A DNA stretch of 64,000 nt from Escherichia phage BUCT632. Position 1 is the stretch's first letter, and each line of letters starts with the position of its first letter. The notes under the pieces were generated by a model. That model was not told the origin of the DNA and did not search any database. It was given only the letters and a program-made list of their open reading frames with translations. Positions 10,899 to 57,616 of this stretch are shown here, one piece after another. The translations under genes were made by a program, and so were the position numbers. The stretch lies in the sequence record PQ488502.1; one strand, written 5' to 3'.

Positions 10899-11888
10899 TT
10901 AAGCCGGCAGTTTAGCCTGCAGACCAGCCAGAGTCTGAGTGATAGCACCAAGACTTAAAGCGATTTGATTAATTACCTGACCGTTAGCACCGCTACCTGC
11001 AGCGATTGCTTCACGTAGGCGACATGCATCTAACTCATCCTGGATACGCGCAGTAGTTACACCAGCGATCGCAGTCTGAAGTTCACAGCAACATTCAGCG
11101 ATCTGACGTTCCAGAGAGTTCTGGTTAGCACACATCTGAGCCTGAACAGCGGCAAACTGGTTATTAGTTTGTAAAGTCTGCTGGAAAGCGATCTGTGCAG
11201 AATCAAACTTATCTTGTGCACGAGCTATCTGGTTAGCTGCGAAAGATTGATCAATCTGGCGAGAAAGATCGAACTGACCCTGAATAACGTTGCGAGTTTC
11301 CTGGCAGATCTGATTAGATAGATTAGCACCTGTACCATAGATCGTAGTTAGTACAGACTGAGTATCACGGCTCTGGTTTTGGGATGTCTGGCTAAAACCA
11401 TTGTTAACTGCGCTTAAAACAGCTCCAGTACCCTGGTTAGCTTCTGTACGAGTAGTGTTAATAGCTGCTAGAATACTAGCGGTATCTTGGTTCTGAAGTA
11501 CTGCATCAACTGCGGTACCTTCACCAACTACACCACGTCCACCGAATCCACCGAAACCACCGAATCCGCCTGTTAATAGAGCACCGATTAGGATAGCTCC
11601 GAATAGTCCCATACCTTCACCACCGAAAGCACCTGCGTTTGCTGGGTAACCACCCAGTAGGCCAGGGAAGCCACTAGTGAATACGTTTACTGGTTCTTGC
11701 ATTTTATGTTTTCCATATTTATGACAATGTTCATCATCATCTTCTTCATCATCTTCATCGTGTTCGCGATGTTTCTCTTCGTAGGCTCTGACCTTCTCCC
11801 ACTTTTTCTTATCTGATTCCTCGTGACGGTGCAGTTCTGCTGCAACGCTAGCGACGGTCTCAGGACTCTTAGCTACTTCTTCTGTCAT
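10899..11888 (-). CDS. Hypothetical protein with acidic His/Asp/Glu-rich segment and Gly-rich (GGFGGFGGFGG) segment
   Basis: minus-strand ORF; start taken at ATG 11888 preceded by AGGAGGTG RBS (track start 11948 is further upstream). Confidence 0.5.
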   Translation of the reverse strand: MTEEVAKSPETVASVAAELHRHEESDKKKWEKVRAYEEKHREHDEDDEEDDDEHCHKYGKHKMQEPVNVFTSGFPGLLGGYPANAGAFGGEGMGLFGAILIGALLTGGFGGFGGFGGRGVVGEGTAVDAVLQNQDTASILAAINTTRTEANQGTGAVLSAVNNGFSQTSQNQSRDTQSVLTTIYGTGANLSNQICQETRNVIQGQFDLSRQIDQSFAANQIARAQDKFDSAQIAFQQTLQTNNQFAAVQAQMCANQNSLERQIAECCCELQTAIAGVTTARIQDELDACRLREAIAAGSGANGQVINQIALSLGAITQTLAGLQAKLPA

Positions 11889-12095
11889 TTTTTGACACCT
11901 CCTAGTATATAGAAAATGTGTGTCTCTTTGATCACTCATCCATAACATATACTTTACACTACCCCAGCGAAAATGTCAAGGGGTCTTTAAAAATTGCCCC
12001 CGGATTTTTAGTGGGGTCACAAATTTTGGTCCTCACCACTTATCTGCTACCCTTAAGTGCCCTATGATTTTCCTCTAAAAAGTTAAAAAATTTGA

Positions 12096-12124
12096 TTGCT
12101 TGAATGCTAAATTCTCTGTATAAT
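12096..12124 (+). promoter_or_regulatory. PN25-type sigma70 promoter
   Basis: TTGCTT 12096-12101, 17-nt spacer, TATAAT 12119-12124, leader ATAAATTTGAGAGAGG. Confidence 0.65.
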
Positions 12125-12154
12125 ATATCTATAAATTTGAGAGAGGAACCAAAT

Positions 12155-12673
12155 ATGAATGTTGATGAGCTAACACAGCACCTCTTATCTAGAGGATTTG
12201 ATACAGATAAATATCATTGCTGGTTAAGTCCGGAAGGGTGGCTAACAGTCCCGTTGTATGATTTCTCTGGAATGTTGAGGGGCTATCAAACTTATAATCC
12301 TTCTGCTCCAAAAGGTCATGGTAAGTGCCCATTTGAAGCTAAATACTTTACTTATTCTACTACACAGTGTGTATGGGGACTAGAAACTCTCAATGGAGAT
12401 GAAAAAGTAGTATTGATCGCTGAATCTGTATTTAAGGCAGTTGCGTTACATAATGCGGGTTATCCAGCCCTGGCAATGTTGGGTTCTTCTCCAGGAAAAG
12501 CGTTATTAAAGCAACTGAAATTACTACCTTTTAAATTGGTAGCTGTTGGAGACAATGATCCCGATGGTGAAAAATTTGCTAGACAATTAAATGGATTTGT
12601 TTCTCCTGTAGATGTAGATGAGATGTCTACCGAAAACTTGAAAAATTTTCTTGCTATGAAGCTAAATTTCTAA
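12155..12673 (+). CDS. Hypothetical protein (possible Toprim-like fold)
   Basis: ORF from ATG 12155 after promoter; segment VVLIAESVF...VAVGDNDPDGEKFA loosely Toprim-like. Confidence 0.45.
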   Translation: MNVDELTQHLLSRGFDTDKYHCWLSPEGWLTVPLYDFSGMLRGYQTYNPSAPKGHGKCPFEAKYFTYSTTQCVWGLETLNGDEKVVLIAESVFKAVALHNAGYPALAMLGSSPGKALLKQLKLLPFKLVAVGDNDPDGEKFARQLNGFVSPVDVDEMSTENLKNFLAMKLNF

Positions 12674-12694
12674 TATAATATATCTTATAAATTC

Positions 12695-12783
12695 GGAAGA
12701 ATAGCATAACGGTATTGCAGCAGATTGCTAATCTGTCGGTTTGAAATATAGCCTTGTGGGTTCGATTCCCACTTCTTCCGCCA
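12695..12783 (+). tRNA. tRNA-Ser (anticodon GCU), type II
   Basis: acceptor GGAAGAA/TTCTTCC, anticodon loop TTGCTAA, long variable arm, T-arm GTGGG-TTCGATT-CCCAC, encoded CCA. Confidence 0.75.
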
Positions 12784-12789
12784 GATTTT

Positions 12790-12867
12790 GGTTCTCAAGC
12801 TCATATGGTATGAGCACCCGGCTCATAACCGGAAGGTACGTAGGTTCGAATCCTCGGGGAGCCACCA
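12790..12867 (+). tRNA. tRNA with CAU anticodon (Met or Ile2)
   Basis: acceptor GGTTCTC/GGGAGCC with G-U pairs, D-arm GCTC-ATATGGTAT-GAGC, anticodon loop CTCATAA, T-loop TTCGAAT, CCA. Confidence 0.65.
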
Positions 12868-12885
12868 ATTAAATAGAGGTCACAA

Positions 12886-13074
12886 ATGGATCTATATATA
12901 GTTTATGTTGTGTTTATTCAAGATAGAGAATACCCGGGTGAATATAAAAAAGGATATAGGTTAGCCAGAGCTACCTCTGAAGCCCAAGCTATGGATAAAG
13001 TGGCGGATTATATGATTACAGTAGAAAACGTACACTATATCGACTACCTTGAAGCCTCAAAAGTAATTGACTAA
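12886..13074 (+). CDS. Hypothetical small protein
   Basis: 62-aa ORF between tRNA genes. Confidence 0.35.
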   Translation: MDLYIVYVVFIQDREYPGEYKKGYRLARATSEAQAMDKVADYMITVENVHYIDYLEASKVID

Positions 13075-13081
13075 ACTACAC

Positions 13082-13158
13082 GGGGGTGTAATCGAATTGG
13101 CATAGGTACTGGACTTAAAATTCAGGTTTTGTGGGTTCGAATCCCACCACCCCTACCA
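13082..13158 (+). tRNA. tRNA with UAA anticodon (Leu by anticodon) and short variable arm
   Basis: acceptor GGGGGTG/CACCCCT, anticodon arm CTGGA-CTTAAAA-TTCAG, T-arm GTGGG-TTCGAAT-CCCAC, A73, CCA. Confidence 0.6.
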
Positions 13159-13333
13159 AATTAAGGAAATAAGATGTATAGACATCCACCTCCGCCAACA
13201 CGTCGTTCTAGGGAAGTCGTCCTTATGGAATTGACTAAAAACTTCAAGGCAACTCTTGAAGATAGAGATCTGGGCACGGATGAAGACATTGATTTTATTT
13301 GTAGACTATTAAAGATGAAACTGGAGAAACAAC

Positions 13334-13540
13334 ATGGCTAATCCTGAAATTACCGCACAACGTTTCATGCTTAAAGGCATGATTGCTGAGGCAGGTATAA
13401 CTCAAGAGGTTGCAGATTTTCATAAGCAATTTCTTGACATTATAACTCTAGCTAAAGAGACTGGAGAAAAAGAACATGGAGCGGCAATTATGGCTATATC
13501 TCTTATTAGTCTAGACTTGGCTGAAGAATCTGGAGTTTAG
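13334..13540 (+). CDS. Hypothetical small protein
   Basis: 68-aa ORF. Confidence 0.4.
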   Translation: MANPEITAQRFMLKGMIAEAGITQEVADFHKQFLDIITLAKETGEKEHGAAIMAISLISLDLAEESGV

Positions 13541-14095: not shown

Positions 14096-14176
14096 GGGGG
14101 ATTGGCTCAGCGGCGACGGCGCCTGGCTGTAGACCGGGTATATCACGCGGAGGTTCGAGTCCTCCATCCCCCACCA
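14096..14176 (+). tRNA. tRNA-Tyr (anticodon GUA), type II
   Basis: acceptor GGGGGAT/ATCCCCC, anticodon arm CCTGG-CTGTAGA-CCGGG, long variable arm, T-arm GGAGG-TTCGAGT-CCTCC, CCA. Confidence 0.7.
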
Positions 14177-14194: not shown

Positions 14195-14740
14195 ATGCAC
14201 AATAAGTTAATAAATGAGCTTCAAAAAAGACAGATAATAACAAAAACTAAGGAGTTTGATATAACTCCAGATTTAATAGTTGAATGCTCGAAAGTTTACT
14301 TAGAGTTAAGTAATACAAAGGCTAAGAAAGTCTCCTTAGGAGATCTTAGATATAATGTTAAACTATTGTGCTTATCCTTAATTAAATTTAAGCAAAAAAA
14401 TAAACTTCCCATAAAAGAAGGCTTCATATATTTTATAGCAAATAAGGCCTGGCCCAATTATTTTAAGATTGGTATGTCAGCTAACCCAAAGAAACGCTTA
14501 GCAAACTATCAAACATATAGCCCTTTTAGGGACTATACAATGCTACACTGGTCTTTCTGGTTTGATAGAAAGGAAGGCAAAAAGTTTGTCCATAGCCTCT
14601 ATCAAGATAGGGATCATGAATGGGTTAAGTTGCCTCGAAGAAAACTAAATAAAATATTTGAACAAATTAATAAACTTTCTGGCTTGGAACATTTAGTACA
14701 GAAAGTTAATAAAGAAATAGTTAATGCACCTATCGTCTAA
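14195..14740 (+). CDS. T5orf172-domain protein (GIY-YIG-related, MUG113-like)
   Basis: motif GFIYFIANKAWPNYFKIGMSANPKKRLANYQTYSP matches the T5orf172-type core; 3' end overlaps tRNA-Glu by 15 nt. Confidence 0.55.
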   Translation: MHNKLINELQKRQIITKTKEFDITPDLIVECSKVYLELSNTKAKKVSLGDLRYNVKLLCLSLIKFKQKNKLPIKEGFIYFIANKAWPNYFKIGMSANPKKRLANYQTYSPFRDYTMLHWSFWFDRKEGKKFVHSLYQDRDHEWVKLPRRKLNKIFEQINKLSGLEHLVQKVNKEIVNAPIV

Positions 14741-14800
14741 TGGTTAGGACATCAGGATTTCAATCTGAGAATCGGAGTTCAATTCTCCGTGGGTGTACCA
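14726..14800 (+). tRNA. tRNA-Glu (anticodon UUC)
   Basis: acceptor GCACCTA/TGGGTGT with G-U pairs, D-stem GTCT/GGAC, anticodon arm TCAGG-ATTTCAA-TCTGA, T-arm CGGAG-TTCAATT-CTCCG, CCA. Confidence 0.65.
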
Positions 14801-20099: not shown

Positions 20100-20173
20100 C
20101 TCCTAAAGCATTGTTGGCGATGCAGTTGCCTTGTAAGCATCTGAACCGGGTTCGATTCCTGGTGGGAGCACCA
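20099..20173 (+). tRNA. tRNA-Thr (anticodon UGU)
   Basis: acceptor GCTCCTA/TGGGAGC, D-arm GCAT-TGTTGGCG-ATGC, anticodon loop CTTGTAA, T-arm CCGGG-TTCGATT-CCTGG, CCA. Confidence 0.7.
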
Positions 20174-20188
20174 AATTTAAAAATTCAT

Positions 20189-20217
20189 TTGCTTTCTCTC
20201 TTATTTCTTGTTATAAT
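20189..20217 (+). promoter_or_regulatory. PN25-type sigma70 promoter
   Basis: TTGCTT 20189-20194, 17-nt spacer, TATAAT 20212-20217. Confidence 0.6.
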
Positions 20218-20247
20218 ACTTGTATAAATTAACGAGAGGGAAACCAA

Positions 20248-20541
20248 ATGAAACGTTATCTTTCTGTTATGTTCCAAACTGGTGGTCAACGCTATACCTA
20301 TGAATTTCCTAGCTCTTGGAAAATCAAAGAAGGTGATCAAGTAGTTGTACTAACACCGCGTGATGGGTACAAGGTAGTAACGGTTAAGCAAGTCTTTCCA
20401 AAAGATTATACGCCATCTAAGTCTATTAATTATAAGATGATTCATGGTGTAGTTCGTCAAGTACCCCGAGTGGACATCGAGGTCAAAGTAGATAAAGATG
20501 GTAAACTTAAATATACCTCTTGCTTAGACGAGTTGCTATAA
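20248..20541 (+). CDS. Hypothetical protein
   Basis: 97-aa ORF downstream of promoter. Confidence 0.5.
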   Translation: MKRYLSVMFQTGGQRYTYEFPSSWKIKEGDQVVVLTPRDGYKVVTVKQVFPKDYTPSKSINYKMIHGVVRQVPRVDIEVKVDKDGKLKYTSCLDELL

Positions 20542-20747
20542 TGAGAATTACTTTCACAGAAAAGATTATGGGTGATGGTGTTATGATCATTACCGCATGG
20601 GATGGTAATCAGTGGTGTAGTGTTTCAGGTATTAAGCCTGAAGAACAAACACTAGAAAATATCTCAAAGATTAAGCGAAGAATGGCAGAACGTGCACGAC
20701 TTCCAGGTGCGCCTAGAAATGGTAAACGTTCTGCAATTAAATGTTAA
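20541..20747 (+). CDS. Hypothetical protein
   Basis: ORF from ATG 20541 overlapping upstream stop (ATAATG). Confidence 0.4.
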   Translation: MRITFTEKIMGDGVMIITAWDGNQWCSVSGIKPEEQTLENISKIKRRMAERARLPGAPRNGKRSAIKC

Positions 20748-20748
20748 T

Positions 20749-20825
20749 GCTTCGGTAGCTTAGCGATCTAAAGCACTCGGCTGATAACCGAGAGATCGGG
20801 GGTTTAAATCCCTCCCGGAGTACCA
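20749..20825 (+). tRNA. tRNA-Ile (anticodon GAU)
   Basis: acceptor GCTTCGG/CCGGAGT with G-U pairs, anticodon arm CTCGG-CTGATAA-CCGAG, variant T-loop TTTAAAT, CCA. Confidence 0.65.
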
Positions 20826-20931
20826 AATTTAGGAATTAAGACTATGCGTCCAGGAAAGTTTAAAAAAGCTAATTGGTCTAAAGAGTATAAAGAATACTTA
20901 CTTAGTCTAATAAAACATAATAGTTAGTTGG

Positions 20932-21007
20932 CAGAGTGGTTATGCACCTCCTTCATACGGAGCGACTACAGTGGTTCAAATCCACTACTAACTACCATTA
21001 AAATAGC
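20932..21007 (+). tRNA. tRNA with CAU anticodon (Met or Ile2)
   Basis: acceptor AGTTAGT/ACTAACT, anticodon loop TTCATAC on CTCC/GGAG stem, T-arm AGTGG-TTCAAAT-CCACT, CCA. Confidence 0.6.
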
Positions 21008-21034
21008 TAGAGATAGCTAAATTTAGGAGCAGCT

Positions 21035-21229
21035 ATGTTAACAATTAAAATAATGTCAGCCAAGAATGGGGAACAGATTCATACAGGCAAAAGTGTAAGC
21101 TTTAATCCTAGAAATAAAAGATTGGCTATAGTTGGAGTAGATCAAGCCATCTTTTTAAAAGAAGATGAAGTAGCATATGTCATGAACCAAACTGGTAAGA
21201 CAGTTTCCGTATACTATGGAAAAGTATAA
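21035..21229 (+). CDS. Hypothetical small protein
   Basis: 64-aa ORF. Confidence 0.4.
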   Translation: MLTIKIMSAKNGEQIHTGKSVSFNPRNKRLAIVGVDQAIFLKEDEVAYVMNQTGKTVSVYYGKV

Positions 21230-21271
21230 AGAATAAATAGCTGAGCCAAATTCTAACATCGGGGAGATCTA

Positions 21272-21640
21272 ATGAAAGCATATCAAAATCTTAAATCTGG
21301 CGTAATTAACCTTGTTCATGAAAATCAGATTATTCAGCTATACTCCGACAATGGTGAACTTAAACAGAAAGTTCTAGTTGAAGATCTAGAAGGTATCACA
21401 CCACAATTCGATCCCGAAGCCTTCCGTGAAGTCAAAGTGGAAGTCGCTCCTCAAATCGAAGGTGGTCAGCACCTAAATGTCAATGTATTAAGCCGTGATC
21501 AGCTTTTGGATGCGCAGAAACATCCTGAAAAATATCCTCAGCTGACAATCCGTGTCTCTGGCTATGCTGTTCGATTTAATGCATTGACGCGTGAACAACA
21601 GAACGACGTTATTAGTCGTACATTTACTCAGGCGATGTAA
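21272..21640 (+). CDS. grcA: Autonomous glycyl-radical cofactor (GrcA/YfiD-like)
   Basis: C-terminal half [11 protein letters not shown]...[36 protein letters not shown] matches recalled E. coli GrcA glycyl-radical region. Confidence 0.75.
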
Positions 21641-21721
21641 TGGGGTTTGGATACGGTTTCTCCGAACTACGCAAGGTAGTCGAGCAAACTCCATTTATCT
21701 CCCAAGTTTTAGGAGAAATGT

Positions 21722-22027
21722 GTGGATCGAGCATTAAGACGCCATCACCGGCAACGTGTGAAAAACAACCGCAAGAAGTATTGGACAGTCTTCCCACATG
21801 AAGAAAGTCCCAAGCGGTTAGGTATTGTCACTACTACTCCTTGCATCTGTTCTTGCTGGATGTGTGGGAACCCTCGCAAGTATTATAAGAATAGTAAAGC
21901 AGGCATGAAAACCTCGGAGATCCGGAAAATGGAAGCGATGATTGCGGACATCACCTATACTGGTGGTATTTCAAATGATGAATTTGATGGCTTCGTAGCG
22001 TTCGAAGATGAACGCCCCGATCTGTAA
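21722..22027 (+). CDS. Hypothetical Cys-rich protein
   Basis: 101-aa ORF, CICSCWMC cluster; followed by terminator. Confidence 0.4.
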   Translation: MDRALRRHHRQRVKNNRKKYWTVFPHEESPKRLGIVTTTPCICSCWMCGNPRKYYKNSKAGMKTSEIRKMEAMIADITYTGGISNDEFDGFVAFEDERPDL

Positions 22028-22035
22028 TTAATAAC

Positions 22036-22073
22036 AAACCCCAGCTATTGAATAAGTAGTCTGGGGTTTTTCT
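22036..22073 (+). terminator. Rho-independent terminator
   Basis: AACCCCAG...CTGGGGTT hairpin followed by TTTCTG. Confidence 0.65.
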
Positions 22074-22148
22074 GTATAAAGGTACATAATATATGTATAA
22101 TAAAATCCATCCACATTAGGTTAACTTAAAAGACTTAATGGAGGTAAT

Positions 22149-22496
22149 ATGAGCCGTACTTATCGTAGACAATCTGGGGATCAGTGGTGGAAGTCTAAAG
22201 AACAATTCTCTCAAGAATATTCTTTCCTCAAAGAAAATGGCTACTGGATTCGTGTTATTTATGCTAAATCCTGGGATGATGTAGAGCAGGAAATGAAGGA
22301 AGCAACCATTCGTAATGAGAAAAAGGATGGTTATAACTGGAATTCTATTAGTAAGAATGTTAAGTGGCATTCTAATAAAATGGTTCGTCAAGGGAATCGT
22401 CAAGAACTCCACCGCGTGATGAAAGATCCAGAAAATTATGACTATAATCGCGATCATGACATGCGTAAGCGTGGATTATGGTGGTGCTATGACTAA
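22149..22496 (+). CDS. Hypothetical protein
   Basis: 115-aa ORF with GGAGG RBS. Confidence 0.5.
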   Translation: MSRTYRRQSGDQWWKSKEQFSQEYSFLKENGYWIRVIYAKSWDDVEQEMKEATIRNEKKDGYNWNSISKNVKWHSNKMVRQGNRQELHRVMKDPENYDYNRDHDMRKRGLWWCYD

Positions 22497-22513
22497 TTTC
22501 TGAAATAATTCAT

Positions 22514-22542
22514 TTGCTAAACCTCTCTTTTCTTGCTATAAT
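22514..22542 (+). promoter_or_regulatory. PN25-type sigma70 promoter
   Basis: TTGCTA 22514-22519, 17-nt spacer, TATAAT 22537-22542. Confidence 0.6.
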
Positions 22543-22572
22543 ATGTTTATAAATTGATGAGAGAGGTTTGAA

Positions 22573-22854
22573 ATGAAAACTCGTCTAGACTGTGCTGTTC
22601 ATGTTCTTGAACATGATGTTGCAGGAACCTGTATGTCTTACCACGAAGCAGGTCGTTTAATTAAAGAACGTGTGGCAGATGTGTGCGGATTGAAGATTAC
22701 TGCTGAGGAAGCTGATGATCTTTTAGGCCAAGCACTGGAGAAAACCGAAATGTTTCTCTGCGATTCTTGTTCTTGGTGGTGTGAAGCTCACGAACGTTCT
22801 TTCAACGATTATGATGTATGTCGTGACTGTAGTGGGGAGGATGAAGATGAATAA
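22573..22854 (+). CDS. Hypothetical Cys-rich acidic protein
   Basis: 93-aa ORF; CDSCSWWC...CRDC zinc-binding-like pattern. Confidence 0.5.
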   Translation: MKTRLDCAVHVLEHDVAGTCMSYHEAGRLIKERVADVCGLKITAEEADDLLGQALEKTEMFLCDSCSWWCEAHERSFNDYDVCRDCSGEDEDE

Positions 22855-42202: not shown

Positions 42203-43213
42203 TTACTCGATTTCGGTGCTAGTGGTAAAAGTAGAAATATCAATACCTTTCACCATTTCATCAATCATTTCAGCGATGTTAAAACTTTGCACCATTTCCA
42301 GCATTGCCGCTTCCATAGCCGCCCCCGCTACCGCTTTCGCCTTTTGGTTACTCGGTGCGTACTGGTCAACCGCCACACTCAGCAGGTTAGCAATCACTAC
42401 TCGACCGATCGGCGTATCAATATAACCTTTAATCATAAACGGTGCTTTTTTAGCCGCTACTTTCGTAATTTGAGTCAGTGCAATTTTACCCGCTTCCAGT
42501 TTTGCAGCATTTACAACAGCGGATTTATTAGCGGCAACGATGTTAGCAATCTTGGTCATGGTGTTTTTTCCTTTGTTTTCAGTAGTTTGAGTATTAACGC
42601 TTTGAGTGTTAGAATTTACAGCATGGTTTTCTACGCTGTCAATAATCTGATCTTCATCTTTCCAGAAAGAAAAACCAGCGCTTTCTATATCCCCATCATA
42701 AATATACGGGTATAACTCCCGTGGTAACAAAAAATTACCATCGCCATCAAAAGCCATTATACCAGTATATTGAGATCCGTCGTTATCCGGCTTATGCCAT
42801 CCAGCGGGTAAATACTTCCAGATAACATCTAAAAATCCCTCAATGCTAGAAAGTCCATTTATCAGATCAAGCCCAATAAGCTCGAAACCATTTATATTAA
42901 ATGATTGACGGCCTGAATTGCTATGATACGCAACAATATTATTACCCTGCGTAATAATAAAATCGGCATCCGGCCCCGCTCCCCTGCCTGTAAAGATATG
43001 GCAATCCCGATTATATAAAACTAGCGTTGCCCCTTGTTTATATAACGGCAAAAAACCATCCATATCATAAGCGTCATAATCATCAAAAAAGTTTTGATGA
43101 ATAGTCTCAATCTTGTTAATAAAATGTTTAATGCTGGTTGACTTGCTACCGTCCAGCAGGTTGCGCAATGCACCCTTTAATACGGTGGCATTATCAGGTT
43201 TATACAGCCTCAT
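42203..43213 (-). CDS. Hypothetical protein
   Basis: 336-aa minus-strand ORF; start preceded (on minus strand) by AGGAGGCCGAACAA RBS. Confidence 0.55.
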   Translation of the reverse strand: MRLYKPDNATVLKGALRNLLDGSKSTSIKHFINKIETIHQNFFDDYDAYDMDGFLPLYKQGATLVLYNRDCHIFTGRGAGPDADFIITQGNNIVAYHSNSGRQSFNINGFELIGLDLINGLSSIEGFLDVIWKYLPAGWHKPDNDGSQYTGIMAFDGDGNFLLPRELYPYIYDGDIESAGFSFWKDEDQIIDSVENHAVNSNTQSVNTQTTENKGKNTMTKIANIVAANKSAVVNAAKLEAGKIALTQITKVAAKKAPFMIKGYIDTPIGRVVIANLLSVAVDQYAPSNQKAKAVAGAAMEAAMLEMVQSFNIAEMIDEMVKGIDISTFTTSTEIE

Positions 43214-44751: not shown

Positions 44752-45003
44752 ATGCAAAACGTTATTACCGCGCCGAAAGTTGGTCAATCCGTCTTCATTC
44801 CTTTCGTTACTAAAACGGATGAATTAACCGGAAAAGCCGAACGTATTAAAGGTGCGGCGCTTATGCCGTTCGATACAATCGACGCGGTATATGCTGAAAA
44901 TGAACGCAGTAACAACGGCAAGCCGATTTATAACGTTCGCGTTAAATCCGGCGACGTTGTAAAGGTTGTTCAACGCAACGAAAAATGGGAAGCTGTATTG
45001 TAA
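44752..45003 (+). CDS. Hypothetical protein
   Basis: 83-aa ORF with AGGAGTTTATACT-ATG initiation context shared by neighbouring genes. Confidence 0.45.
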   Translation: MQNVITAPKVGQSVFIPFVTKTDELTGKAERIKGAALMPFDTIDAVYAENERSNNGKPIYNVRVKSGDVVKVVQRNEKWEAVL

Positions 45004-45104
45004 TGTAGTGTTAACTTTATATTCCCCTGAAATATGGGGAATATATGGATTAACATTTAGTTAATCATTAAATCCCTTAAATTAAACTAATAGGAGTTTT
45101 TACC

Positions 45105-45512
45105 ATGACTAACGCAAAAACCGCAAAATTCGCATGGAACGAAGAAAACACTCAGAAAGCTGTTTCTATGTATCAGCAGTTAATCAACGAAAACGGTTTA
45201 GATTTCGCAAATAGCGACGGTTTAAAAGAGATTGCAAAAGCAGTAGGCGCGGCTTCTCCCGTATCCGTTCGGTCAAAATTGACCAGTGCAAAAGCCTATC
45301 AAAAAAGCGATAAGCCGCGTAAAGTTGGCGGCGGTAGCTCTGTGCGTAAAGCTCACTATGTGCGCGTTATCGCTAAACATGCTATCGATTCCGGCATTAT
45401 CAAAGACGCCGATGATCTGGCAAGTCTGGAAAGTGCAAAACTTGAAACGCTGGACGCAGTAGCGCAATTGTTAGGCGTTGCTGATGAAGTAAAACAAGCC
45501 GCAGGCGAATAA
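45105..45512 (+). CDS. Hypothetical protein
   Basis: 135-aa ORF with shared AGGAGTTTTTACC-ATG context. Confidence 0.5.
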   Translation: MTNAKTAKFAWNEENTQKAVSMYQQLINENGLDFANSDGLKEIAKAVGAASPVSVRSKLTSAKAYQKSDKPRKVGGGSSVRKAHYVRVIAKHAIDSGIIKDADDLASLESAKLETLDAVAQLLGVADEVKQAAGE

Positions 45513-45513
45513 T

Positions 45514-45557
45514 AGTTATACCTTGCCCCCTTCTAGTGAGGGGGCAATAATATAACT
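45514..45557. other. Long palindromic hairpin (no U-tract) after gene
   Basis: AGTTATACCTTGCCCCC...GGGGGCAATAATATAACT. Confidence 0.5.
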
Positions 45558-45602
45558 GTTTAGCGATAGTTATTTTCTTCCCTTAAATCAGGAGTTTTAA
45601 AA

Positions 45603-45800
45603 ATGATTTTCTTCCCTACTGAATCTTTGATTCTAGGCTTGTTTATTATGGCGGCCTCATTATTGTTCGCTTATTTTCAAAATGATTTAGATTCGTATTA
45701 TTTTAAACGTAAATCTAAGTTAGCAAAACGTTTAGGTCTGCTTTGTTTTATCGCTGCCGTTGCTTGTGGTGTTAGTTCTAGCCTAGTGCCTTTAAATTAA
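45603..45800 (+). CDS. Hypothetical small membrane protein
   Basis: 65-aa ORF, two hydrophobic segments. Confidence 0.35.
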   Translation: MIFFPTESLILGLFIMAASLLFAYFQNDLDSYYFKRKSKLAKRLGLLCFIAAVACGVSSSLVPLN

Positions 45801-45890
45801 TGTTGCAAATTATAACGCCTATTATTTGAGGCGTTATATTTGGCAATATTGCCATTATTAATCTAATCCCTTTAATGGAGTTTTATTACT

Positions 45891-47561
45891 ATGATTATTT
45901 CCGCAGAAAAACAAACCGTTATCCTGAAAATGGCCGCTGACTTTAATTTCTATGGTAAACGTCTGCGCGCTACTAAACTGGAGGTCTGCGACGATATATC
46001 AAAAGCAGTCTACGATACAACGAAACATTCTACCGCCATTTGTGATTGGCTGGAAGCAAACAAACCAGCTAAACCGAAAGCGGCAAAAGTAGCAAAAGCC
46101 ATTAAAAACGACGAGCGCCCCGAAGCGGCTGGGATTGTTTCTAGTACGGTTGAGCAATGGGAAGTAAAACAGGGTAAACGTTTTATTATTACGTCGATTC
46201 AGAATAATACTTTCCCGCATAAAAACTTTTTAGCAAGTCTGGAAAAATTCGCTGAATATATCGGTGCCGATTTGCTTGTTTCTAAGTATATTTATAATAA
46301 AAACGGCTTCCAAAATGGAGAAGGTGCAGACGGAATCAAATATGATTCTGCGTTTGATAAATATATTTGCAGCAAAAACGTGTTTTTAAATAACCGCCGT
46401 TTTGCTTTCATGGCTGAAATTAATGTTTTGCCTACCGCAGATTATCCGCTTTCTGGATTCGCAGAAACTGCAACGGCTTTAAATATTGAAGGTCTGGCAA
46501 TTGGTCACGCTAAAATTACCGCTGAAAGCGTACCAGCTTTAAAAGGTGAAGTAGTGCGCCGTATGTACTCAACCGGAACGGCAACCCTCAAAAACTACAT
46601 TCAGCAGAAAGCAGGACAAAAGGCCGAGGCGCTGCATAACTTCGGTGCGCTGATTGTTGAGTTCGACGAGGACGGGGAATTTTTTGTTCGCCAGCTTGAA
46701 ACGATGGACGAAAGCGGGGTATTTTATGATCTGAATGTGTGCGCTACTCCTGCCGGATGCTATGAGACATCGGGGCATGTTTTAGGCTTGCAGTATGGTG
46801 ATATTCATGCAGAAAAACTAGATGAGGCTTGCGCTCAAGCGTCTTGGGGTCATGGTGATACTTATGGGCTTGTGGATATTCTCAAACCGAAATATCAGTT
46901 TGTACATGATGTGCATGATTTTACATCCCGCAATCATCATAACCGCGCTTCTGGTGTATTCCTAGCGAAACAGTACGCCGCCGGACGTGATAAGGTTATT
47001 GATGATCTTATCGATACGGGGCGCGTGCTGGAATCAATGGAGCGTGATTTTTCTCAAACAATCATTGTTGAATCAAATCACGATTTGGCGTTATCCCGTT
47101 GGCTGGATGATCGAAATGCTAACATCAAAGACGATCCAGCAAACGCCGAACTATATCACAGCCTAAACGCTGCAATCTATGCGGCTATTGCAAAGCAGGA
47201 CGATACTTTCAACGTGCTAGATTATGCCTTGCGTAAGGTAGCAGGTTGTGAATTTAACGCCATTTTCCTGACCACTGACCAATCATTTAAAATTGCAGGC
47301 ATTGAATGCGGCGTACACGGTCACAACGGCATTAACGGCAGCCGTGGCAACCCGAAACAATTTAAGAAATTGGGCAAGTTAAACACGGGGCATACGCATA
47401 CCGCCAGCATTTACGGTGGCGTTTATACCGCTGGCGTTGCTGGTAGTCTGGATATGGGTTACAACGTTGGCGCGTCAAGCTGGACGCAAACGCATTTAAT
47501 TACATACGCCAACGGCCAGCGCACTTTGATTGACTTTAAAAACGGCAAGTTTTTCGCATAA
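45891..47561 (+). CDS. A1: A1-like pre-early protein with calcineurin-like metallophosphoesterase motifs
   Basis: 556 aa (length matches recalled T5 A1); motifs GDIHAEKLD, HDVHDF, GHTHTASIY. Confidence 0.6.
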   Translation: MIISAEKQTVILKMAADFNFYGKRLRATKLEVCDDISKAVYDTTKHSTAICDWLEANKPAKPKAAKVAKAIKNDERPEAAGIVSSTVEQWEVKQGKRFIITSIQNNTFPHKNFLASLEKFAEYIGADLLVSKYIYNKNGFQNGEGADGIKYDSAFDKYICSKNVFLNNRRFAFMAEINVLPTADYPLSGFAETATALNIEGLAIGHAKITAESVPALKGEVVRRMYSTGTATLKNYIQQKAGQKAEALHNFGALIVEFDEDGEFFVRQLETMDESGVFYDLNVCATPAGCYETSGHVLGLQYGDIHAEKLDEACAQASWGHGDTYGLVDILKPKYQFVHDVHDFTSRNHHNRASGVFLAKQYAAGRDKVIDDLIDTGRVLESMERDFSQTIIVESNHDLALSRWLDDRNANIKDDPANAELYHSLNAAIYAAIAKQDDTFNVLDYALRKVAGCEFNAIFLTTDQSFKIAGIECGVHGHNGINGSRGNPKQFKKLGKLNTGHTHTASIYGGVYTAGVAGSLDMGYNVGASSWTQTHLITYANGQRTLIDFKNGKFFA

Positions 47562-47568
47562 TTAAATT

Positions 47569-47594
47569 TATAAGCTGGAAATATTTCCAGCTTA
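47569..47594. other. Perfect palindromic hairpin after A1-like gene
   Basis: ATAAGCTGGAAATATTTCCAGCTTAT. Confidence 0.5.
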
Positions 47595-47626
47595 TACCCT
47601 TATTAAATTAATTGGAGTTTATAACT

Positions 47627-48019
47627 ATGAAAAAGCAAAATATCCCATTCGATCGCGCTCAATCCTCAATCGTTCTGGTTTATTCTAATGGTGAACGTTA
47701 CCACGTCGAGGCGGGGCACGTTGTTGATGATTTAATCGAGTTTAACGAGGCGTTACAGATCACGACTTTCGCCTATACGCAAGGCCGCGCAAGTAGTCAC
47801 ATCAAGGCCGCTGGCGTTTATGTTGACACGGTGAAACAAGAAACGATTATCATCGACGCCGTAAAATCCGGCCTAGCCTTTGCAGTTGTCGCGCCTTGCC
47901 CCGCTTGCCTAGATGATCAGCTAACGAGTGCAAAGGTATATACCTGCGCGGGTATTCGTTCCAGTGTATCAGGTGAGGATGTTAGTTTTATCGCTGATGC
48001 GTTGGCTTATGGTCTTTAA
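47627..48019 (+). CDS. A2: A2-like pre-early protein (by position and size)
   Basis: 130-aa ORF immediately downstream of A1-like gene; ATG 47627 after GGAG. Confidence 0.45.
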   Translation: MKKQNIPFDRAQSSIVLVYSNGERYHVEAGHVVDDLIEFNEALQITTFAYTQGRASSHIKAAGVYVDTVKQETIIIDAVKSGLAFAVVAPCPACLDDQLTSAKVYTCAGIRSSVSGEDVSFIADALAYGL

Positions 48020-48098
48020 TAGTTAATTTATTATTACCCGCTTATAAATAGCGGGTAATGCTGAATTAATCTAATCCCTTAAATGGAGAACGTAACAA

Positions 48099-48833
48099 AT
48101 GAATAAAGCTATTATGAATATTTCCCGCAGCTTCCCGCATATTTCCCGCGTCATGATTTGGGATTTAGACGGCACTATCATTAATTCTTTCCATCGTGTA
48201 GCGCCTTGCTTTGATAGTGAGGGCAATTTAGATTTAAATAAGTATAAAAATGAAGCGTGTAAACATCATTTAATAATGCAGGATTCTTTATTGCCATTGG
48301 TTGAATACATGCGCCAATGTATGAATGACGCAAATACTTTAAATATTATTTGTACCGCTCGACTAATGAGCAAGTCGGACTATTATTATTTGCGTAAACA
48401 AGGTCTGCGCGGTCGTGGTAATAGTAATATCCGCGTGTTTTCCCGCGATACACTGCATAAATATTTTAAAGCTGATAAGGTTAGCGAGATATACCACAGC
48501 AAAGACGCAGTTTATAAATCTTATTATTTTGAATTATTTAAACAGCTATATCCGAACGCTGATTTTACGATGATTGATGATCATAAAGGCGTATTATCAG
48601 CGGCGGCATCATACGGATTTAAAACGCTGGACGCGCAAGCCGTTAACGATATTCTATCAATCGGGGTGGCATTGATAGGTGAAACCTTTATCGATGAATC
48701 GCTCGATGATGATAATGATTATCAGTTCCTAGCCGATCGTTTGAAATTATGTTGGGAAGGTATGACCGAGGAAGAACGCGCAGAATATAGTTGCAGCCCG
48801 CAACAATACATGGAGAAATTAAAAGTTGCATAA
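48099..48833 (+). CDS. dmp: HAD-family 5'-deoxynucleotidase (dmp-like)
   Basis: 244 aa; HAD motif I MIWDLDGTII near N-terminus; size and position consistent with recalled T5 dmp. Confidence 0.5.
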   Translation: MNKAIMNISRSFPHISRVMIWDLDGTIINSFHRVAPCFDSEGNLDLNKYKNEACKHHLIMQDSLLPLVEYMRQCMNDANTLNIICTARLMSKSDYYYLRKQGLRGRGNSNIRVFSRDTLHKYFKADKVSEIYHSKDAVYKSYYFELFKQLYPNADFTMIDDHKGVLSAAASYGFKTLDAQAVNDILSIGVALIGETFIDESLDDDNDYQFLADRLKLCWEGMTEEERAEYSCSPQQYMEKLKVA

Positions 48834-48847
48834 TAATTAAAGTTGAA

Positions 48848-48884
48848 ATAGTCACGGTGTGTAACGATAACATGCCGTGACTAT
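48848..48884. other. Hairpin with 10-bp perfect stem after dmp-like gene
   Basis: ATAGTCACGG...CCGTGACTAT. Confidence 0.5.
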
Positions 48885-48984
48885 TAGCTTGCTAAGTACC
48901 GGGCGGTAATGAGACTTATTCTCATCTCGGGGGGCACTGGACACACCTCCATGTGTAATCTTATGAAATTTGGCAAAAGTCAAA

Positions 48985-49230
48985 TTAGCGCATAGAAGGG
49001 TCATCAAACCTGTGTTCTGGTCTGAACTCACGGAATCTCTTCCGCGACGCCCGAGATCCATCCGACCACTCCCGATCAAACTCCGCACGTTTCTCGTCAA
49101 ACTTCCGCTCCCTTTCCGCAATCTCCCGCGCCACTTCCGCAATATATTTACGATGCTTGTTGATTGCCGCAGTCGTCCCGAAAACTCCCGCGAGTACCCC
49201 TATAATAAAAGCAATTACAATACTAAACAT
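48985..49230 (-). CDS. Hypothetical membrane-anchored protein
   Basis: 81-aa minus-strand ORF, N-terminal TM then Arg/Glu-rich tail; two shorter membrane ORFs follow upstream on the same strand. Confidence 0.35.
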   Translation of the reverse strand: MFSIVIAFIIGVLAGVFGTTAAINKHRKYIAEVAREIAERERKFDEKRAEFDREWSDGSRASRKRFREFRPEHRFDDPSMR

Positions 49231-49639
49231 TATTTATATTCCCGTAGCTTACGTTCAATACGAGCTAAGTGGTTATCCAAGACACATTGCCCTAGAATTA
49301 CCACAACTAATAAAACAATAATTATTACCTCCATTAAAGCCACCCCGCCATAGCTGCTAACCAAAAGCCTACGAAGATTAGGAATAATACAAAACCAAAT
49401 CCGTAAATATTAATCCACGCTTCATACACTTCTCCGCGTCTGCTCTTTCTTTTGTTTGGCATATCTTTCACTCTCCAATAAATATGGTATTTTAAAGTAT
49501 TTTATAGTTTGTACATAACCAACCATGCTCGTGACTTCCTAGAAGGACTTCTACTTTTCTCACATAGTGGTTTCTGCTAGTACACCATCCAAGAAATAAA
49601 AAATTTAGTTTACTTGGATGTCTTTTTGCTTTATACTAA

Positions 49640-49906
49640 TTACAGGTAGTTAGATTGCTCTAGTTTAAATTTACAATCACCATATTTAAGGTCAAACTGA
49701 CTGAGATCCCACCACCCAAACTTAGTACGGAGCTGTACTACTGGGAATCGATCTCCCTTAATACGAACTTTTTGAACCTTGAGGCCGTAATGTTCTTCTC
49801 CCGCACCACCAAAAGATTTTACAAATCCAGTACAAAATGGTTTGGGAGCAGGTGCACAACCAGATAACATAACTGCGGCAACTAGTGCAATCACAAACTT
49901 TTTCAT
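49640..49906 (-). CDS. llp: Lipoprotein, Llp-like (candidate receptor-blocking superinfection exclusion protein)
   Basis: signal peptide with lipobox LSGC; small; divergent from adjacent receptor-binding protein gene as recalled for T5 llp-oad. Confidence 0.5.
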   Translation of the reverse strand: MKKFVIALVAAVMLSGCAPAPKPFCTGFVKSFGGAGEEHYGLKVQKVRIKGDRFPVVQLRTKFGWWDLSQFDLKYGDCKFKLEQSNYL

Positions 49907-49991
49907 ATTTATCTCTCCATTTCTAATTTATGAGTATATTATAGCAAAATAGAGAGATGAAAGCAAATACATTTTTATAATAGGAGATTAT

Positions 49992-51749
49992 ATGGGTTTT
50001 TTCGCTGGAAAATATAGCGATGGTAAGACCGTACTATCTTTAAATACTGAATCTGGTGGTGACATTAATCGTCACTATAGTCCAAATGCCAATAGTATTT
50101 TTCATAGTGATATGCCATTTGTCCTAGTTGATGGTACTTATGAGTCTGGGTTAGGTGATGCCGGTAATGGGTTTTTTGTATGTCAGATGCCCTCTGACAT
50201 AATAAATATTAAATCCAATGACCCCGGTAGAGTTATATTAACTGCTATTGAGATTAATGGTACTCACAGAGCTTTTCTTAATGGTACTCAGAGTAAGGTG
50301 GGTCAAACTATAGTTGCCACTCAAGCAGATCCTTTTAGATCTTTTGCTAGTGTTTCCCAGACTAGTGGATTTGCATTTGGTAATAGCCTGGCATCTGGTA
50401 CATATAACTATAATCCATCTATAGGACATGAAGAATCTATTTCTAGGAATGGTACAGGGGGTACTACCTTACATAGTACGTATCATGGTATAGTTAGGCC
50501 AGGTGCAGGAGCTCCAGTAGGTATTACTGTTGCAGAAGCTTTTGCACAGTTAGGATTCCCTACTAATAGTAGTACAGTACCTATAGATAGTAATAACCAA
50601 TATTACTGGGACCCAGGATGGATGTCTCCTTTAGGATCAGCACACAGAGGGCACGATTGGTTTTATGTTTGTAACTCTAACATACGTGGGTATGGTGGGG
50701 TAAGACAAGGTCTTCCTGGTAATGTAAATACTATGTATCATGATGGGGGTAATAGATTTGTTTGTAGAGGTTCTACAACTAATTTAGCTAATCAATCTGG
50801 TAACGCTACAATATTACAGGATTGGTATAACATAACCCCTACTAAAGTTATTTGGTACGTTTTGAATTTAAGATACTCAAATGGTAATATGGGTATTTCT
50901 GGTAATCCTTTTACTGGCTCAGATATTCTTATCTCTCCCTCTAATTTTACTATAAAAGGGGTTAGTTTACCGAATACTGGGTATAAGTTTATCAACCAAA
51001 ATGCTTTTGGTAACTTAGGTTATAGACCAGATATGGAATATATTGGAAATAACGCAGCGTACACCGGGGCCTTTGGGGATACCACTGCAAGATGTGAACT
51101 TGTAGGTTCTAGTAACGGGAGTTTATGGTCTCCTGTAGACTATGGAGGGGCTAAGTCTCAAATTAGTATTTACAAATTCGGAGCTGGTAAGCAATGGTAT
51201 GTAAATTCTAATGATAATACTATCGGTAATGAACACGGGGTTGTTTGGGGGCCTTCAGCAGTTCCACTACGACTTTTTAGCGGAAATGTTGGTAGTTCTT
51301 ACATGGGGGATGATATTACTCCCAGCTATCCAGGAACTGGAGATAGATACGTTGGTTTATCAACTATTGGGCTAGGTATACCGGGTGGCAATGCTACTGT
51401 AATTCTTACCACTGAAGTTATATCAGGTAATCTTAACTGTGCAGGTGTTCCTGCTAATACATGGAATAACGGTGTGTTTCAAGTGCAGGGAAGAAGAGCA
51501 TATAGTTATAGTAATGGAGACGCGATATTCCACCAGATTTTAACACTACCAGTAGGGTATTTAGTACCTTTTCATACTACATCTGCTTTTAGATACACAC
51601 CTAACAATGCCCTAAGTAGAAATAGTTTTATATACACTGCTAAAAATCTGGGGAACGGAAATGTAGAGTTAGGGGTAGTTATGCACGTAAGTTTAGGTAG
51701 TGCAGTTTTTCTACCTAGATTAAGAGTAACAGTTCAACGCCTTACCTAA
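49992..51749 (+). CDS. Receptor-binding tail protein (pb5/Oad-like candidate)
   Basis: 585-aa Gly/Asn/Ser/Thr-rich ORF between Llp-like gene and terminase genes. Confidence 0.45.
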
Positions 51750-51759
51750 AGGAGGAAAT

Positions 51760-52242
51760 ATGGCAAATGATGTATTAGTACCAGATCTTATGTCCCCTGA
51801 AGGGATGGATGTGATTGAAGCTTATTTACAGTGCGGTAGCGATGTGCCTTCTGCCGCACGTAGTCTTGGAATGTCCGAAATTGCTTTCCGAGATATTATG
51901 AATCGTAGTGAAGTTAAGAATTACTTAAACGATATTTTTATGGAAAGTGGTTTCCGTAACAGGGATCGTTTATTTGGTGTTCTGGATGAAGTTATTAAGC
52001 GTAAGCTGGAGGAACTGGAAGAAACTGGCATGGGTTCTGACCAAGATATTATGGATATTCTCTGGAAAGCACATAAAATGAAAATGGAAGAAATGAAAAT
52101 GATGGTAGAATTGGAGAAAGTGAAGGCAGCAGCCCGTACTCCAGCTAACCAGACCAATATCCAGAATAATATTATTGCTGGAGCTGGGGATCAAAACTAC
52201 ATGGACTTAATTACTTCCCTAGCTACTGGAGGTAAGAAGTAA
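51760..52242 (+). CDS. Terminase small subunit (candidate)
   Basis: 160-aa ORF immediately upstream of and abutting large terminase; GGAGG RBS. Confidence 0.45.
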
Positions 52243-53558
52243 TGGAAGTATCAAGACCCTACGTTAATACGGTAGATGTTATTGATTTCGGGATAGATAA
52301 ACGTTTCTTTCGTCTACCTGTTTCAGGAATACTAGCACAAGAAGGTATTACACCTAATGGTCCTCAAATAGCGATTATCAATGCGCTAGAAGACCCTAGA
52401 CATCGTTTTGTAACGGCGTGTGTATCACGCCGTGTGGGCAAGTCCTTCATCGCGTATACTCTTGGGTTCCTAAAATTGCTGGAACCTAATGTGAAGGTGT
52501 TGGTAGTTGCTCCTAACTACTCACTGGCCAACATCGGGTGGTCTCAGATTCGTGGTCTTATTAAAAAGTACGGCCTACAAACCGAACGTGAGAACGCTAA
52601 AGATAAAGAGATTGAGCTAGCAAACGGCTCACTGTTTAAACTAGCTTCTGCGGCGCAGGCTGACTCCGCAGTTGGACGTTCATATGACTTTATCATCTTC
52701 GATGAGGCGGCAATTTCCGACGTTGGTGGTGATGCCTTTAGAGTTCAGTTGCGTCCTACTCTAGATAAGCCTAATTCTAAGGCTCTATTTATCTCTACTC
52801 CTCGTGGGGGTAACTGGTTTAAAGAGTTTTATGCCTATGGATTTGATGATACATTACCTAACTGGGTATCTATTCATGGTACATATCGTGATAACCCACG
52901 TGCTGATCTGAATGACATCGAAGAAGCACGTCGTACAGTTAGTAAAAACTACTTCCGTCAGGAATATGAGGCTGACTTCTCTGTATTCGAAGGTCAGATC
53001 TTTGATACCTTTAATGCTATCGATCATGTTAAAGATCTCAAAGGTATGCGTCACTTCTTTAAAGATGATGACGCATTCGAAACGTTGCTTGGTATTGACG
53101 TTGGTTATCGTGATCCTACAGCAGTTCTTACTATTAAGTACCACTATGATACAGATACCTACTATGTATTAGAAGAGTACCAGCAGGCAGAGAAAACTAC
53201 AGCGCAACATGCTGCGTATATTCAGCACTGTATAGATCGTTATAAAGTTGATCGTATTTTTGTTGACTCTGCAGCAGCTCAGTTCCGTCAGGACTTAGCT
53301 TATGAACATGAAATTGCATCAGCTCCAGCTAAAAAATCTGTCCTAGATGGTCTAGCATGTTTACAGGCACTATTCCAACAGGGAAAGATTATTGTAGACG
53401 CTTCATGCTCTTCATTAATCCATGCATTGCAGAACTACAAGTGGGATTTCCAAGAAGGTGAAGAGAAATTATCACGTGAAAAACCACGTCATGATGCTAA
53501 CTCTCACCTCTGTGATGCGCTGCGCTATGGAATTTACTCTATTTCCCGTGGTAAATAA
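52242..53558 (+). CDS. Terminase large subunit
   Basis: 438 aa; Walker A-like VSRRVGKSF and DE motif FIIFDEAA; position before portal/capsid genes. Confidence 0.7.
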   Translation: MEVSRPYVNTVDVIDFGIDKRFFRLPVSGILAQEGITPNGPQIAIINALEDPRHRFVTACVSRRVGKSFIAYTLGFLKLLEPNVKVLVVAPNYSLANIGWSQIRGLIKKYGLQTERENAKDKEIELANGSLFKLASAAQADSAVGRSYDFIIFDEAAISDVGGDAFRVQLRPTLDKPNSKALFISTPRGGNWFKEFYAYGFDDTLPNWVSIHGTYRDNPRADLNDIEEARRTVSKNYFRQEYEADFSVFEGQIFDTFNAIDHVKDLKGMRHFFKDDDAFETLLGIDVGYRDPTAVLTIKYHYDTDTYYVLEEYQQAEKTTAQHAAYIQHCIDRYKVDRIFVDSAAAQFRQDLAYEHEIASAPAKKSVLDGLACLQALFQQGKIIVDASCSSLIHALQNYKWDFQEGEEKLSREKPRHDANSHLCDALRYGIYSISRGK

Positions 53559-53672
53559 ATAAGTATAGGATGGGATACTACTCAGTTGGTATCCCATTCC
53601 TGCATTTTAAAATCCCCTTTACAAATTCGATACGATTATGTATACTATATTCATACAGTTGAGGAGAACACT

Positions 53673-54026
53673 ATGGCAAGCAATATAAAATATAAACGCG
53701 ATGCTATATCCCTTATGAGAGACGGAATAAAAAGTCAATATAAAAAAGACTCTCAATGTGCTATCTGCGGTTGTGCTGAAGAATTAGAGCTTCATCATTA
53801 CCATACGGTGTCTCTACTAGTTAAGGCATGAGCTAGTAGAAGACACTGTTACCCTTTGTGTACACCATCACCAATTATTACATAAGGTTTACACAAAAGA
53901 ACCTCCTTTATTTTCTGCTAATAAGCAAAAAGTGTGGGTTCAAAAGCAGAAAGACAAATTACAGAATCCTCAAGAAAAGACACAAGTCAAGACTGAAACA
54001 AAATCAGGATTCGCAAGGTTCTTATA
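53673..54026 (+). pseudogene. HNH endonuclease-like gene split by a frameshift near 53820-53833
   Basis: frame 0 gives ...CAICGCAEELELHHYH then stop at 53831; frame +1 continues ...TLCVHHHQLLH... to stop at 54026. Confidence 0.4.
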
Positions 54027-55039
54027 ATGGGTTTTAAAAGCTGGATTACTGAAAAGCTAAATCCGGGTCAACGTATTATAAGAGACATGGAACCAGTTAG
54101 TCATCGCACTAACCGTAAGCCTTTTACCACTGGACAAGCCTACAGTAAAATTGAGATTCTCAATAGAACTGCTAATATGGTTATAGATAGTGCGGCGGAG
54201 TGTTCTTATACTCATGTACGACCTAATCCGTAGACTTGTAGTCACTGACCTACTTTTTGAAGGTTGTGCATACATCTATTGGGATGGCACAGCACTTTAT
54301 CATGTCCCTGCTGCACTAATGCAAGTAGAGGCAGATGCCAATAAGTTTATCAAAAAATTTATATTTAATAATCAGATAGACTATCGCGTAGATGAGATTA
54401 TCTTTATAAAGGATAACAGTTACGTGTGTGGCACAAATTCTCAAATTTCTGGACAATCTCGTGTTGCTACTGTTATTGACTCTCTTGAGAAGCGTTCTAA
54501 GATGCTTAACTTTAAAGAGAAGTTCCTCGATAACGGAACCGTGATTGGTCTTATTCTTGAGACGGATGAAATCCTGAACAAGAAATTGCGTGAGCGTAAA
54601 CAAGAAGAATTACAACTAGATTATAATCCTAGTACAGGTCAGTCCTCTGTCCTGATTAGACTAAGTACTGCTTGATGGTGGTAATAATGCGAACATTCGA
54701 CCAAACATCGAATTGTTCTACTATATGACTATCATCCCTATGCTGAACAAGCTGACTAGTTCTCTTACTTTCTTTTTTGGTTATAAGATTACTCCTAATA
54801 CTAAGGAAGTAGCTGCATTAACACCAGATAAAGAATCTGAGGCTAAACATTTAACCTCATTGGTTAATAATGGTATTATAACTGGTAATGAAGCTCGTTT
54901 AGAGCTGAACCTTGAACCTTTAGATGATGAGCAGATGAATAAGATTCGTATTCCTGCTAACGTTGCTGGTTCTGCAACAGGTGTATCCGGTCAAGAAGGT
55001 GGTAGACCTCAAGGTTCCACCGAGGGAGATAAAGAATGA
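54027..55039 (+). pseudogene. Portal protein gene region, coding potential split across three reading frames
   Basis: ORFs 54027..54233, 54190..54675, 54713..55039 in three frames sit where portal is expected; an ATG at 53828 would give a 403-aa portal if frames were continuous. Confidence 0.4.
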
Positions 55040-55527: not shown

Positions 55528-55530
55528 TAA

Positions 55531-56163: not shown

Positions 56164-56180
56164 CGGAGAATTATTTAAAA

Positions 56181-57603: not shown

Positions 57604-57616
57604 TTGGGAAAAATAA

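Follow-up and report, generated by a model that had tools for sequence, protein, structure and literature searches.

The window analysed here, a 64,000-nt stretch of Escherichia phage BUCT632 (PQ488502.1), contains an intact 122-aa open reading frame (ORF) that runs from ATG to TAA on the plus strand and encodes a GrcA-like protein (Table 1). The window carries a cluster of 22 tRNA genes with the GrcA-like gene at its downstream edge, in the same place that T5.056 occupies in phage T5, after tRNA-Met. The surrounding 3 kb is 95–97% identical to many T5-group Salmonella and Escherichia phages (Demerecviridae; Tequintavirus and Epseptimavirus), which bears out the statement of the preliminary description, made from the sequence letters and a list of ORFs, that the gene is phage-encoded.

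Table 1 Coordinates of the GrcA-like gene, its parts and other features of the window
Feature	Position	Strand	Basis
GrcA-like autonomous glycyl-radical protein, complete CDS	21272..21640	+	ORF list; PF01228; PHROG 1209; orthologue of T5.056
Shine–Dalgarno sequence GGGGAG, 5 nt before the ATG	21261..21266	+	Sequence
N-terminal half, residues 1–60, T5-type variant of the GrcA N-terminal region	21272..21451	+	Identity; hhalign; dN/dS; AF2
C-terminal glycyl-radical domain, residues 61–122, copy of PflB 698–759	21452..21637	+	phmmer against 6owr and 1cm5
RVSGYAV heptamer, residues 94–100	21551..21571	+	Read from sequence
Codon of the predicted radical site, Gly97	21560-21562	+	Counterpart of PflB G734 and GrcA G102
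Probable promoter, TTGCTT, 17-nt spacer, TATAAT	20189..20217	+	Homology to annotated T5 promoter P11
64-aa ORF between tRNA-Met and the GrcA-like gene	21035-21229	+	PHROG 3909, function-unknown family
53-aa ORF, ATG overlapping the stop codon of the GrcA-like gene (TAATG)	21640..21801	+	PHROG 31464, E 8.5e-37; annotated in DT57C and LVR16A
101-aa basic Cys-rich ORF (CICSCWMC), T5.055 homologue	21722-22027	+	PHROG 4499; no Pfam match
Probable rho-independent terminator, CCCCAG...CTGGGG + TTTTT	22036..22071	+	Near-identical to the annotated T5 terminator after T5.055
tRNA-Tyr	14096-14176		
181-aa ORF with T5orf172/MUG113 domain	14195-14740	+	E 3e-8
tRNA-Glu	14726-14800		
349-aa ORF	10899-11948	-	No Pfam match
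336-aa ORF, full-length DUF7566	42203-43213	-	E 2e-114

By homology to annotated T5 features, the transcription unit that includes the gene would consist, in order, of the promoter, ORF 20248, tRNA-Ile, tRNA-Met, the 64-aa ORF, the GrcA-like gene, the 53-aa ORF, the T5.055 homologue and the terminator. The promoter assignment draws on the P11-bearing stretch of NC_005859, which is 94% identical to window positions 20160-20260, and a consensus scan of positions 20700-22600 found no convincing promoter dedicated to the GrcA-like gene. A simple scan missed the terminator, probably on account of its 16-nt loop, the limit of the scan being 8. The 53-aa ORF may be translationally coupled to the GrcA-like gene. 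It overlaps the 101-aa ORF in a different frame, and phage records vary between annotating either ORF and annotating both, DT57C marking one of them '????'. The 64-aa ORF is also present in S131 and is absent from T5 and DT57C, in which the gene nearly abuts tRNA-Met.

Comparison of seven neighbouring ORFs with Pfam and PHROGs gave no link to anaerobic metabolism, all of them falling into families of unknown function, and comparison of ten other large ORFs in the window with Pfam returned nothing relevant. A six-frame search of the window for the CxxxCxxC motif, covering stop-to-stop frames of at least 60 aa, revealed no activase; its sole match was the Cys-rich stretch of the T5.055 homologue, which was rejected as an activase, being too small and without a Pfam match.

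Several other features of the window stand out. The 3′ end of the 181-aa ORF, which lies between tRNA-Tyr and tRNA-Glu, overlaps the start of the latter; it looks like an inserted mobile-type gene, because in S131 just 10 nt separate the two tRNA genes. Two ORFs, of 349 and 336 aa, lie on the minus strand in regions otherwise coded on the plus strand. From about 45000 to 64000, past the early region and on the same strand as it, long ORFs (438, 458 and 464 aa, among others) are putatively structural, judging by their look only. Linear T5 records leave only about 25 kb between the early region around T5.056 and the end of the genome; because the window continues past this distance, its source is probably a circularly permuted assembly or one with a collapsed terminal repeat, like the 'circular' S131 record.

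A stand-alone protein with a glycyl-radical domain

The preliminary description had read the ORF as a GrcA-like glycyl-radical cofactor, and profile and structure searches confirmed this identity. The Pfam model Gly_radical (PF01228) matched with 66.4 bits against a cut-off of 22.2 (E 3.7e-18), and the top NCBIfam matches were three GrcA models (TIGR04365, GrcA3 and GrcA2), with the C-terminal ends of PFL-type enzymes ranking after them. Among PDB sequences, phmmer ranked best 6owr, the NMR structure of E. coli GrcA/YfiD (E 1.4e-30), and residues 698–759 of PflB (E 5e-27). PHROG 1209 was matched end to end, residues 1–122 aligning with positions 1–121 of the 121-position profile (E 8e-48). The GrcA equivalog model TIGR04365 reached 121 bits against a cut-off of 170 and aligned to residues 50–122 only; the cut-off was missed because the N-terminal half is unmatched, and the GrcA2 and GrcA3 scores likewise remained under their own cut-offs.

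The protein, of about 14 kDa, stands alone, in that the NCBIfam PFL models matched it over their last ~60 positions only. It has neither a catalytic barrel nor a single cysteine, and hence no equivalent of Cys418/Cys419. Because both are missing, it can act only through a partner enzyme and not as a PFL catalyst by itself.

The last 62 residues share 48/62 identities with GrcA and 49/62 each with PflB and T4 Y06I. The preliminary description had called the C-terminal match to bacterial GrcA nearly residue for residue, which is slightly generous at 77–79% identity; a 20-residue core is nevertheless identical, and residues 94–103 match as it stated. Within the domain, the predicted radical site Gly97 is the counterpart of PflB G734 and GrcA G102, and its column is invariant in two alignments. 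Among 65 homologues there are 36 invariant columns, all in the C-terminal half, including the whole block P89–N103 that carries the radical loop; this alignment, which was also the AF2 input, leaves out the T4 row. The AF2 model has a mean pLDDT of 72, and its C-terminal half superposes on both YfiD (6owr) and the C-terminus of PFL (2pfl), in the latter case with an rmsd of 2.9 Å over 50 columns. The RVSGYAV heptamer alone is a competent substrate mimic for the PFL-activating enzyme (PMC10665898).

The N-terminal half is a different matter. Residues 1–60 are only 19–38% identical to the N-termini of other phage and bacterial GrcA proteins, although Q5 and R52 are near-invariant in all groups (T5-type, other phage and bacterial). 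In hhalign comparisons, to be read with the small profiles and short regions in mind, the T5-type N-terminus aligned with the bacterial one with a probability of 4% over 10 columns and with other phage N-termini with a probability of 84% over residues 37–59 only; T4-type and jumbo-phage N-termini aligned with bacterial ones with a probability of 97.9% (E 3.4e-13). With the same small profiles, no similarity to the bacterial GrcA N-terminus was detected by hhalign over the short region from residue 1 to ~36. AF2 predicts beta strands in this half (pLDDT ~80), a weak indication of moderate confidence. In YfiD, the N-terminal region matters for binding of cleaved PFL and for efficient installation of the radical (PMC8683613). 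By analogy, residues 1–60 of the phage protein are presumed to serve in docking to PFL and in activation; docking may differ from that of YfiD, because residues 1 to ~36 are unlike the bacterial GrcA N-terminus.

Selection, distribution and database labels

Selection was analysed on the window gene and seven orthologues from T5-like phages; all relatives examined have kept an intact reading frame. Six of the seven differ in protein sequence, and against these whole-gene dN/dS was 0.05–0.2, with dS of up to 0.65; against the seventh, S131, there were 18 synonymous and no non-synonymous differences. The C-terminal domain showed 16–21 synonymous and no non-synonymous differences from DT57C, S131 and SHSML-45, and the N-terminal half is constrained as well (dN/dS 0.13–0.22). 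This strong purifying selection indicates a functional gene and not a captured fragment.

Synonymous divergence is distributed unevenly along the gene. Relative to S131, dS rises from 0.05 in the N-terminal half to 0.55 in the C-terminal half; poul149, fuchur and LVR16A give the opposite picture, with 0.5–0.67 in the N-terminal and 0.16 in the C-terminal half. That the contrast between the two halves depends on the relative chosen suggests intragenic recombination among T5-like phages.

Homologues were found by tblastn in 1,584/50,697 phage records. At identities of at least 90% there were 429 records, from T5-like phages, and at ~50–56% there were more than 1,000, including T4-like phages (T4 itself among them) and Klebsiella, Yersinia, Aeromonas and Vibrio phages. 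A large protein search gave the same picture, with bacterial GrcA (Vibrio, Aeromonas and enterobacteria) ranking next. The position of the gene is conserved over hundreds of T5-like genomes.

Database labels for this protein vary widely. In GenBank, proteins 100% identical to it from Salmonella phages Th1 and S131 are labelled 'pyruvate formate-lyase'. T5.056 is called 'putative acetyltransferase-related protein, match to IPR001150' in the T5 record, IPR001150 being the glycine-radical domain of InterPro, and the DT57C orthologue 'putative autonomous glycyl radical cofactor GrcA'; 2-ketobutyrate formate-lyase, ribonucleotide reductase subunit and hypothetical protein also occur. Of these labels, 'glycyl radical cofactor' alone suits a protein of 122 aa that lacks cysteine. 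As a 'pyruvate formate-lyase' (TIGR01255) the protein was rejected: it reached 85.9 bits against a cut-off of 994.2, covered only profile positions 683–744 and has no cysteine. The label 'ribonucleotide reductase subunit' was rejected too, neither NrdD nor NrdG being among the Pfam, NCBIfam or structure matches. The gene thus documents widespread wrong labelling as pyruvate formate-lyase, acetyltransferase or ribonucleotide reductase subunit. In the record of Citrobacter phage YZU-L1, only a 67-aa C-terminal fragment (P0033) is called.

Proposed function and rival readings

Two spare-part proteins have been validated biochemically, E. coli YfiD and T4 Y06I. Both take up a glycyl radical from the PFL-activating enzyme, bind oxygen-cleaved PFL and restore its activity (PMC8683613, PMC13450708), and in the restored enzyme the radical passes from the glycine of the spare part to PflB Cys419 (PMC8683613; PMC12338860; PMC13450708). 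The original work on Y06I and YfiD is that of Wagner et al. (2001, BBRC 285:456), to which we refer through its citation in PMC8683613, PMC12338860 and PMC13450708. By analogy with these two proteins, the window protein is probably a GrcA-type spare part for host PflB, and its gene an auxiliary metabolic gene. The preliminary description had likewise suggested that a phage copy could repair or substitute oxygen-damaged pyruvate formate-lyase during anaerobic infection, a reading supported by the full-length match to PHROG 1209, the 52.7% identity to T4 Y06I and the function established for such genes. The presence of the RVSGYAV heptamer and of a near-copy of the PFL radical domain makes the same mechanism by far the most likely one.

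We suggest that, in a low-oxygen infection of Salmonella or E. coli, the protein would be expressed early, from a transcription unit that also carries phage tRNAs. PflA, the radical-SAM enzyme of the host, would recognize the RVSGYAV loop and take a hydrogen atom from Gly97. [quoted passage not shown] The phage would benefit by keeping up the ATP supply for its own production under micro-aerobic or fluctuating oxygen, for example in the gut. No radical-SAM-like or activase ORF was found in the window, and we infer from this that host PflA must be used.

The close relative S131 encodes an NrdD-like anaerobic ribonucleotide reductase (11477-13351 of the stretch examined), which fits a phage adapted to oxygen-free infection. 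The annotation of the 19 kb of S131 examined lists no activase, whether of the NrdG or of the PflA type; should this be so for the whole genome, both phage glycyl-radical proteins would need activases from the host.

Instead of repairing PFL, the protein might be a modulator or hijacker that competes with host PflB or GrcA for PflA, or that docks on intact PflB or TdcE, a reading that we consider unlikely; pyruvate flux and formate output would then be redirected or throttled to suit the phage, the divergent N-terminus providing another docking specificity. Such a role would make sense of N-terminal ~36 residues that are specific to the T5 type and yet under purifying selection (dN/dS 0.13–0.22), with predicted beta strands, in a region that in YfiD governs PFL binding (PMC8683613). 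It would also accord with the ability of GrcA to act in vivo on inactive full-length PflB and not only on the cleaved enzyme, as reported in the title of Kammel & Sawers (2022), a reference cited in PMC13450708 and PMC12338860. A pure decoy, however, would need no residues beyond the loop recognized by PflA, whereas here the radical loop and the entire C-terminal domain are conserved as for a productive radical donor, and the T4 homologue restores activity and does not inhibit (PMC8683613). In a narrower form of the idea, the T5-type module (residues 1 to ~45), which is conserved within Demerecviridae and predicted to fold into a small beta sheet, could bring a docking logic other than that of YfiD and Y06I, directed to intact PflB or TdcE or to holding PflA, which we rate as quite unlikely. 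If true, the phage would actively control the pyruvate node rather than merely repair oxygen damage.

Alternatively, the protein might be a spare radical domain for a glycyl-radical enzyme other than PFL, and spare parts for such enzymes have been raised as a possibility (PMC8683613). T5-like genomes encode NrdD, and some records label the ORF as a subunit of ribonucleotide reductase, so that phage NrdD would be a candidate partner. That the protein serves this or another glycyl-radical enzyme is very unlikely, however: the domain shares 79% of its residues with the PflB C-terminus, all other families of glycyl-radical enzymes give far lower scores, the matches include no NrdD family or structure, and the heptamer is that of PFL. 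We give almost no weight to the remaining reading, that the ORF is a piece of host pflB or grcA captured by the phage, without function and carried along as a passenger. Its C-terminal half does resemble a piece of a host gene, and the adjacent ORFs belong to families of unknown function, but an intact frame in all relatives at dN/dS of 0.05–0.2 and dS of up to 0.65, a conserved position in hundreds of T5-like genomes, a ribosome-binding site and a transcription unit with a conserved promoter and terminator at its ends are not what such a remnant would show. A pseudogene was rejected on dN/dS. The spare-part reading remains the one that we favour.

As a spare part for PflB, the gene would be a clear-cut case of an auxiliary metabolic gene that serves infection under anaerobic or micro-aerobic conditions. 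Phage GrcA-type genes have been known since the work on T4 Y06I in 2001, and an identical protein has already been deposited. What is mildly new is the distinct T5-type N-terminal region, the differing affinities of the C-terminal domains of the T4 and T5 types, and the widespread mis-annotation. In the literature on phage GrcA and anaerobiosis, and on T5 and formate-lyase, we found no study of the T5-type protein, and in that on these proteins no report of a fitness effect of phage GrcA on phage yield. The T5-type N-terminal region offers a natural variant for studying how PFL is recognized by the poorly understood N-terminus of spare-part proteins.

Comparison with known glycyl-radical proteins

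From T5.056 and its Demerecviridae orthologues, the protein differs in nothing of substance: position and length are the same, and identity is 90–100%. The C-terminal domain of PflB (698–759; 1h16, 2pfl) is identical to that of the phage protein at 49/62 positions, has the same loop around G734 and superimposes on the predicted fold, but PflB carries a catalytic barrel of ~700 residues that the phage protein does without.

E. coli GrcA/YfiD (6owr; TIGR04365; IPR011140) resembles the T5-type protein in size, in its two-part layout, in the radical domain and motif and in the matching predicted C-terminal fold. It differs in being bacterial, and the T5-type protein, which is phage-encoded, has an unmatched N-terminal half and does not reach the equivalog cut-off. 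Disorder in solution is reported for the YfiD N-terminus (PMC8683613), whereas the T5-type protein is predicted, with moderate confidence, to have strands there.

T4 Y06I (vs.6) is likewise a stand-alone protein of ~120 aa from a virulent enterobacterial phage, and is placed in PHROG 1209 by the tag of the T4 record itself. The two phage proteins are 52.7% identical over all 122 residues, both begin with MKAYQ, and they share the RVSGYAV loop and 49/62 residues of the C-terminal domain. They differ in gene context, the T5-type gene following the tRNA cluster and the T4 gene lying in the vs/regB region. The N-terminal region of the T4 protein is clearly homologous to the bacterial one, whereas residues 1 to ~36 of the T5 type are not detectably so. 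Its C-terminal domain is nearly a copy of E. coli GrcA (60/62), whereas that of the T5 type is equidistant from GrcA and PflB (48–49/62) and ends in TQAM, like PflB (TQSM). The T4 and T5 lineages thus seemingly have different histories of gene exchange with the host.
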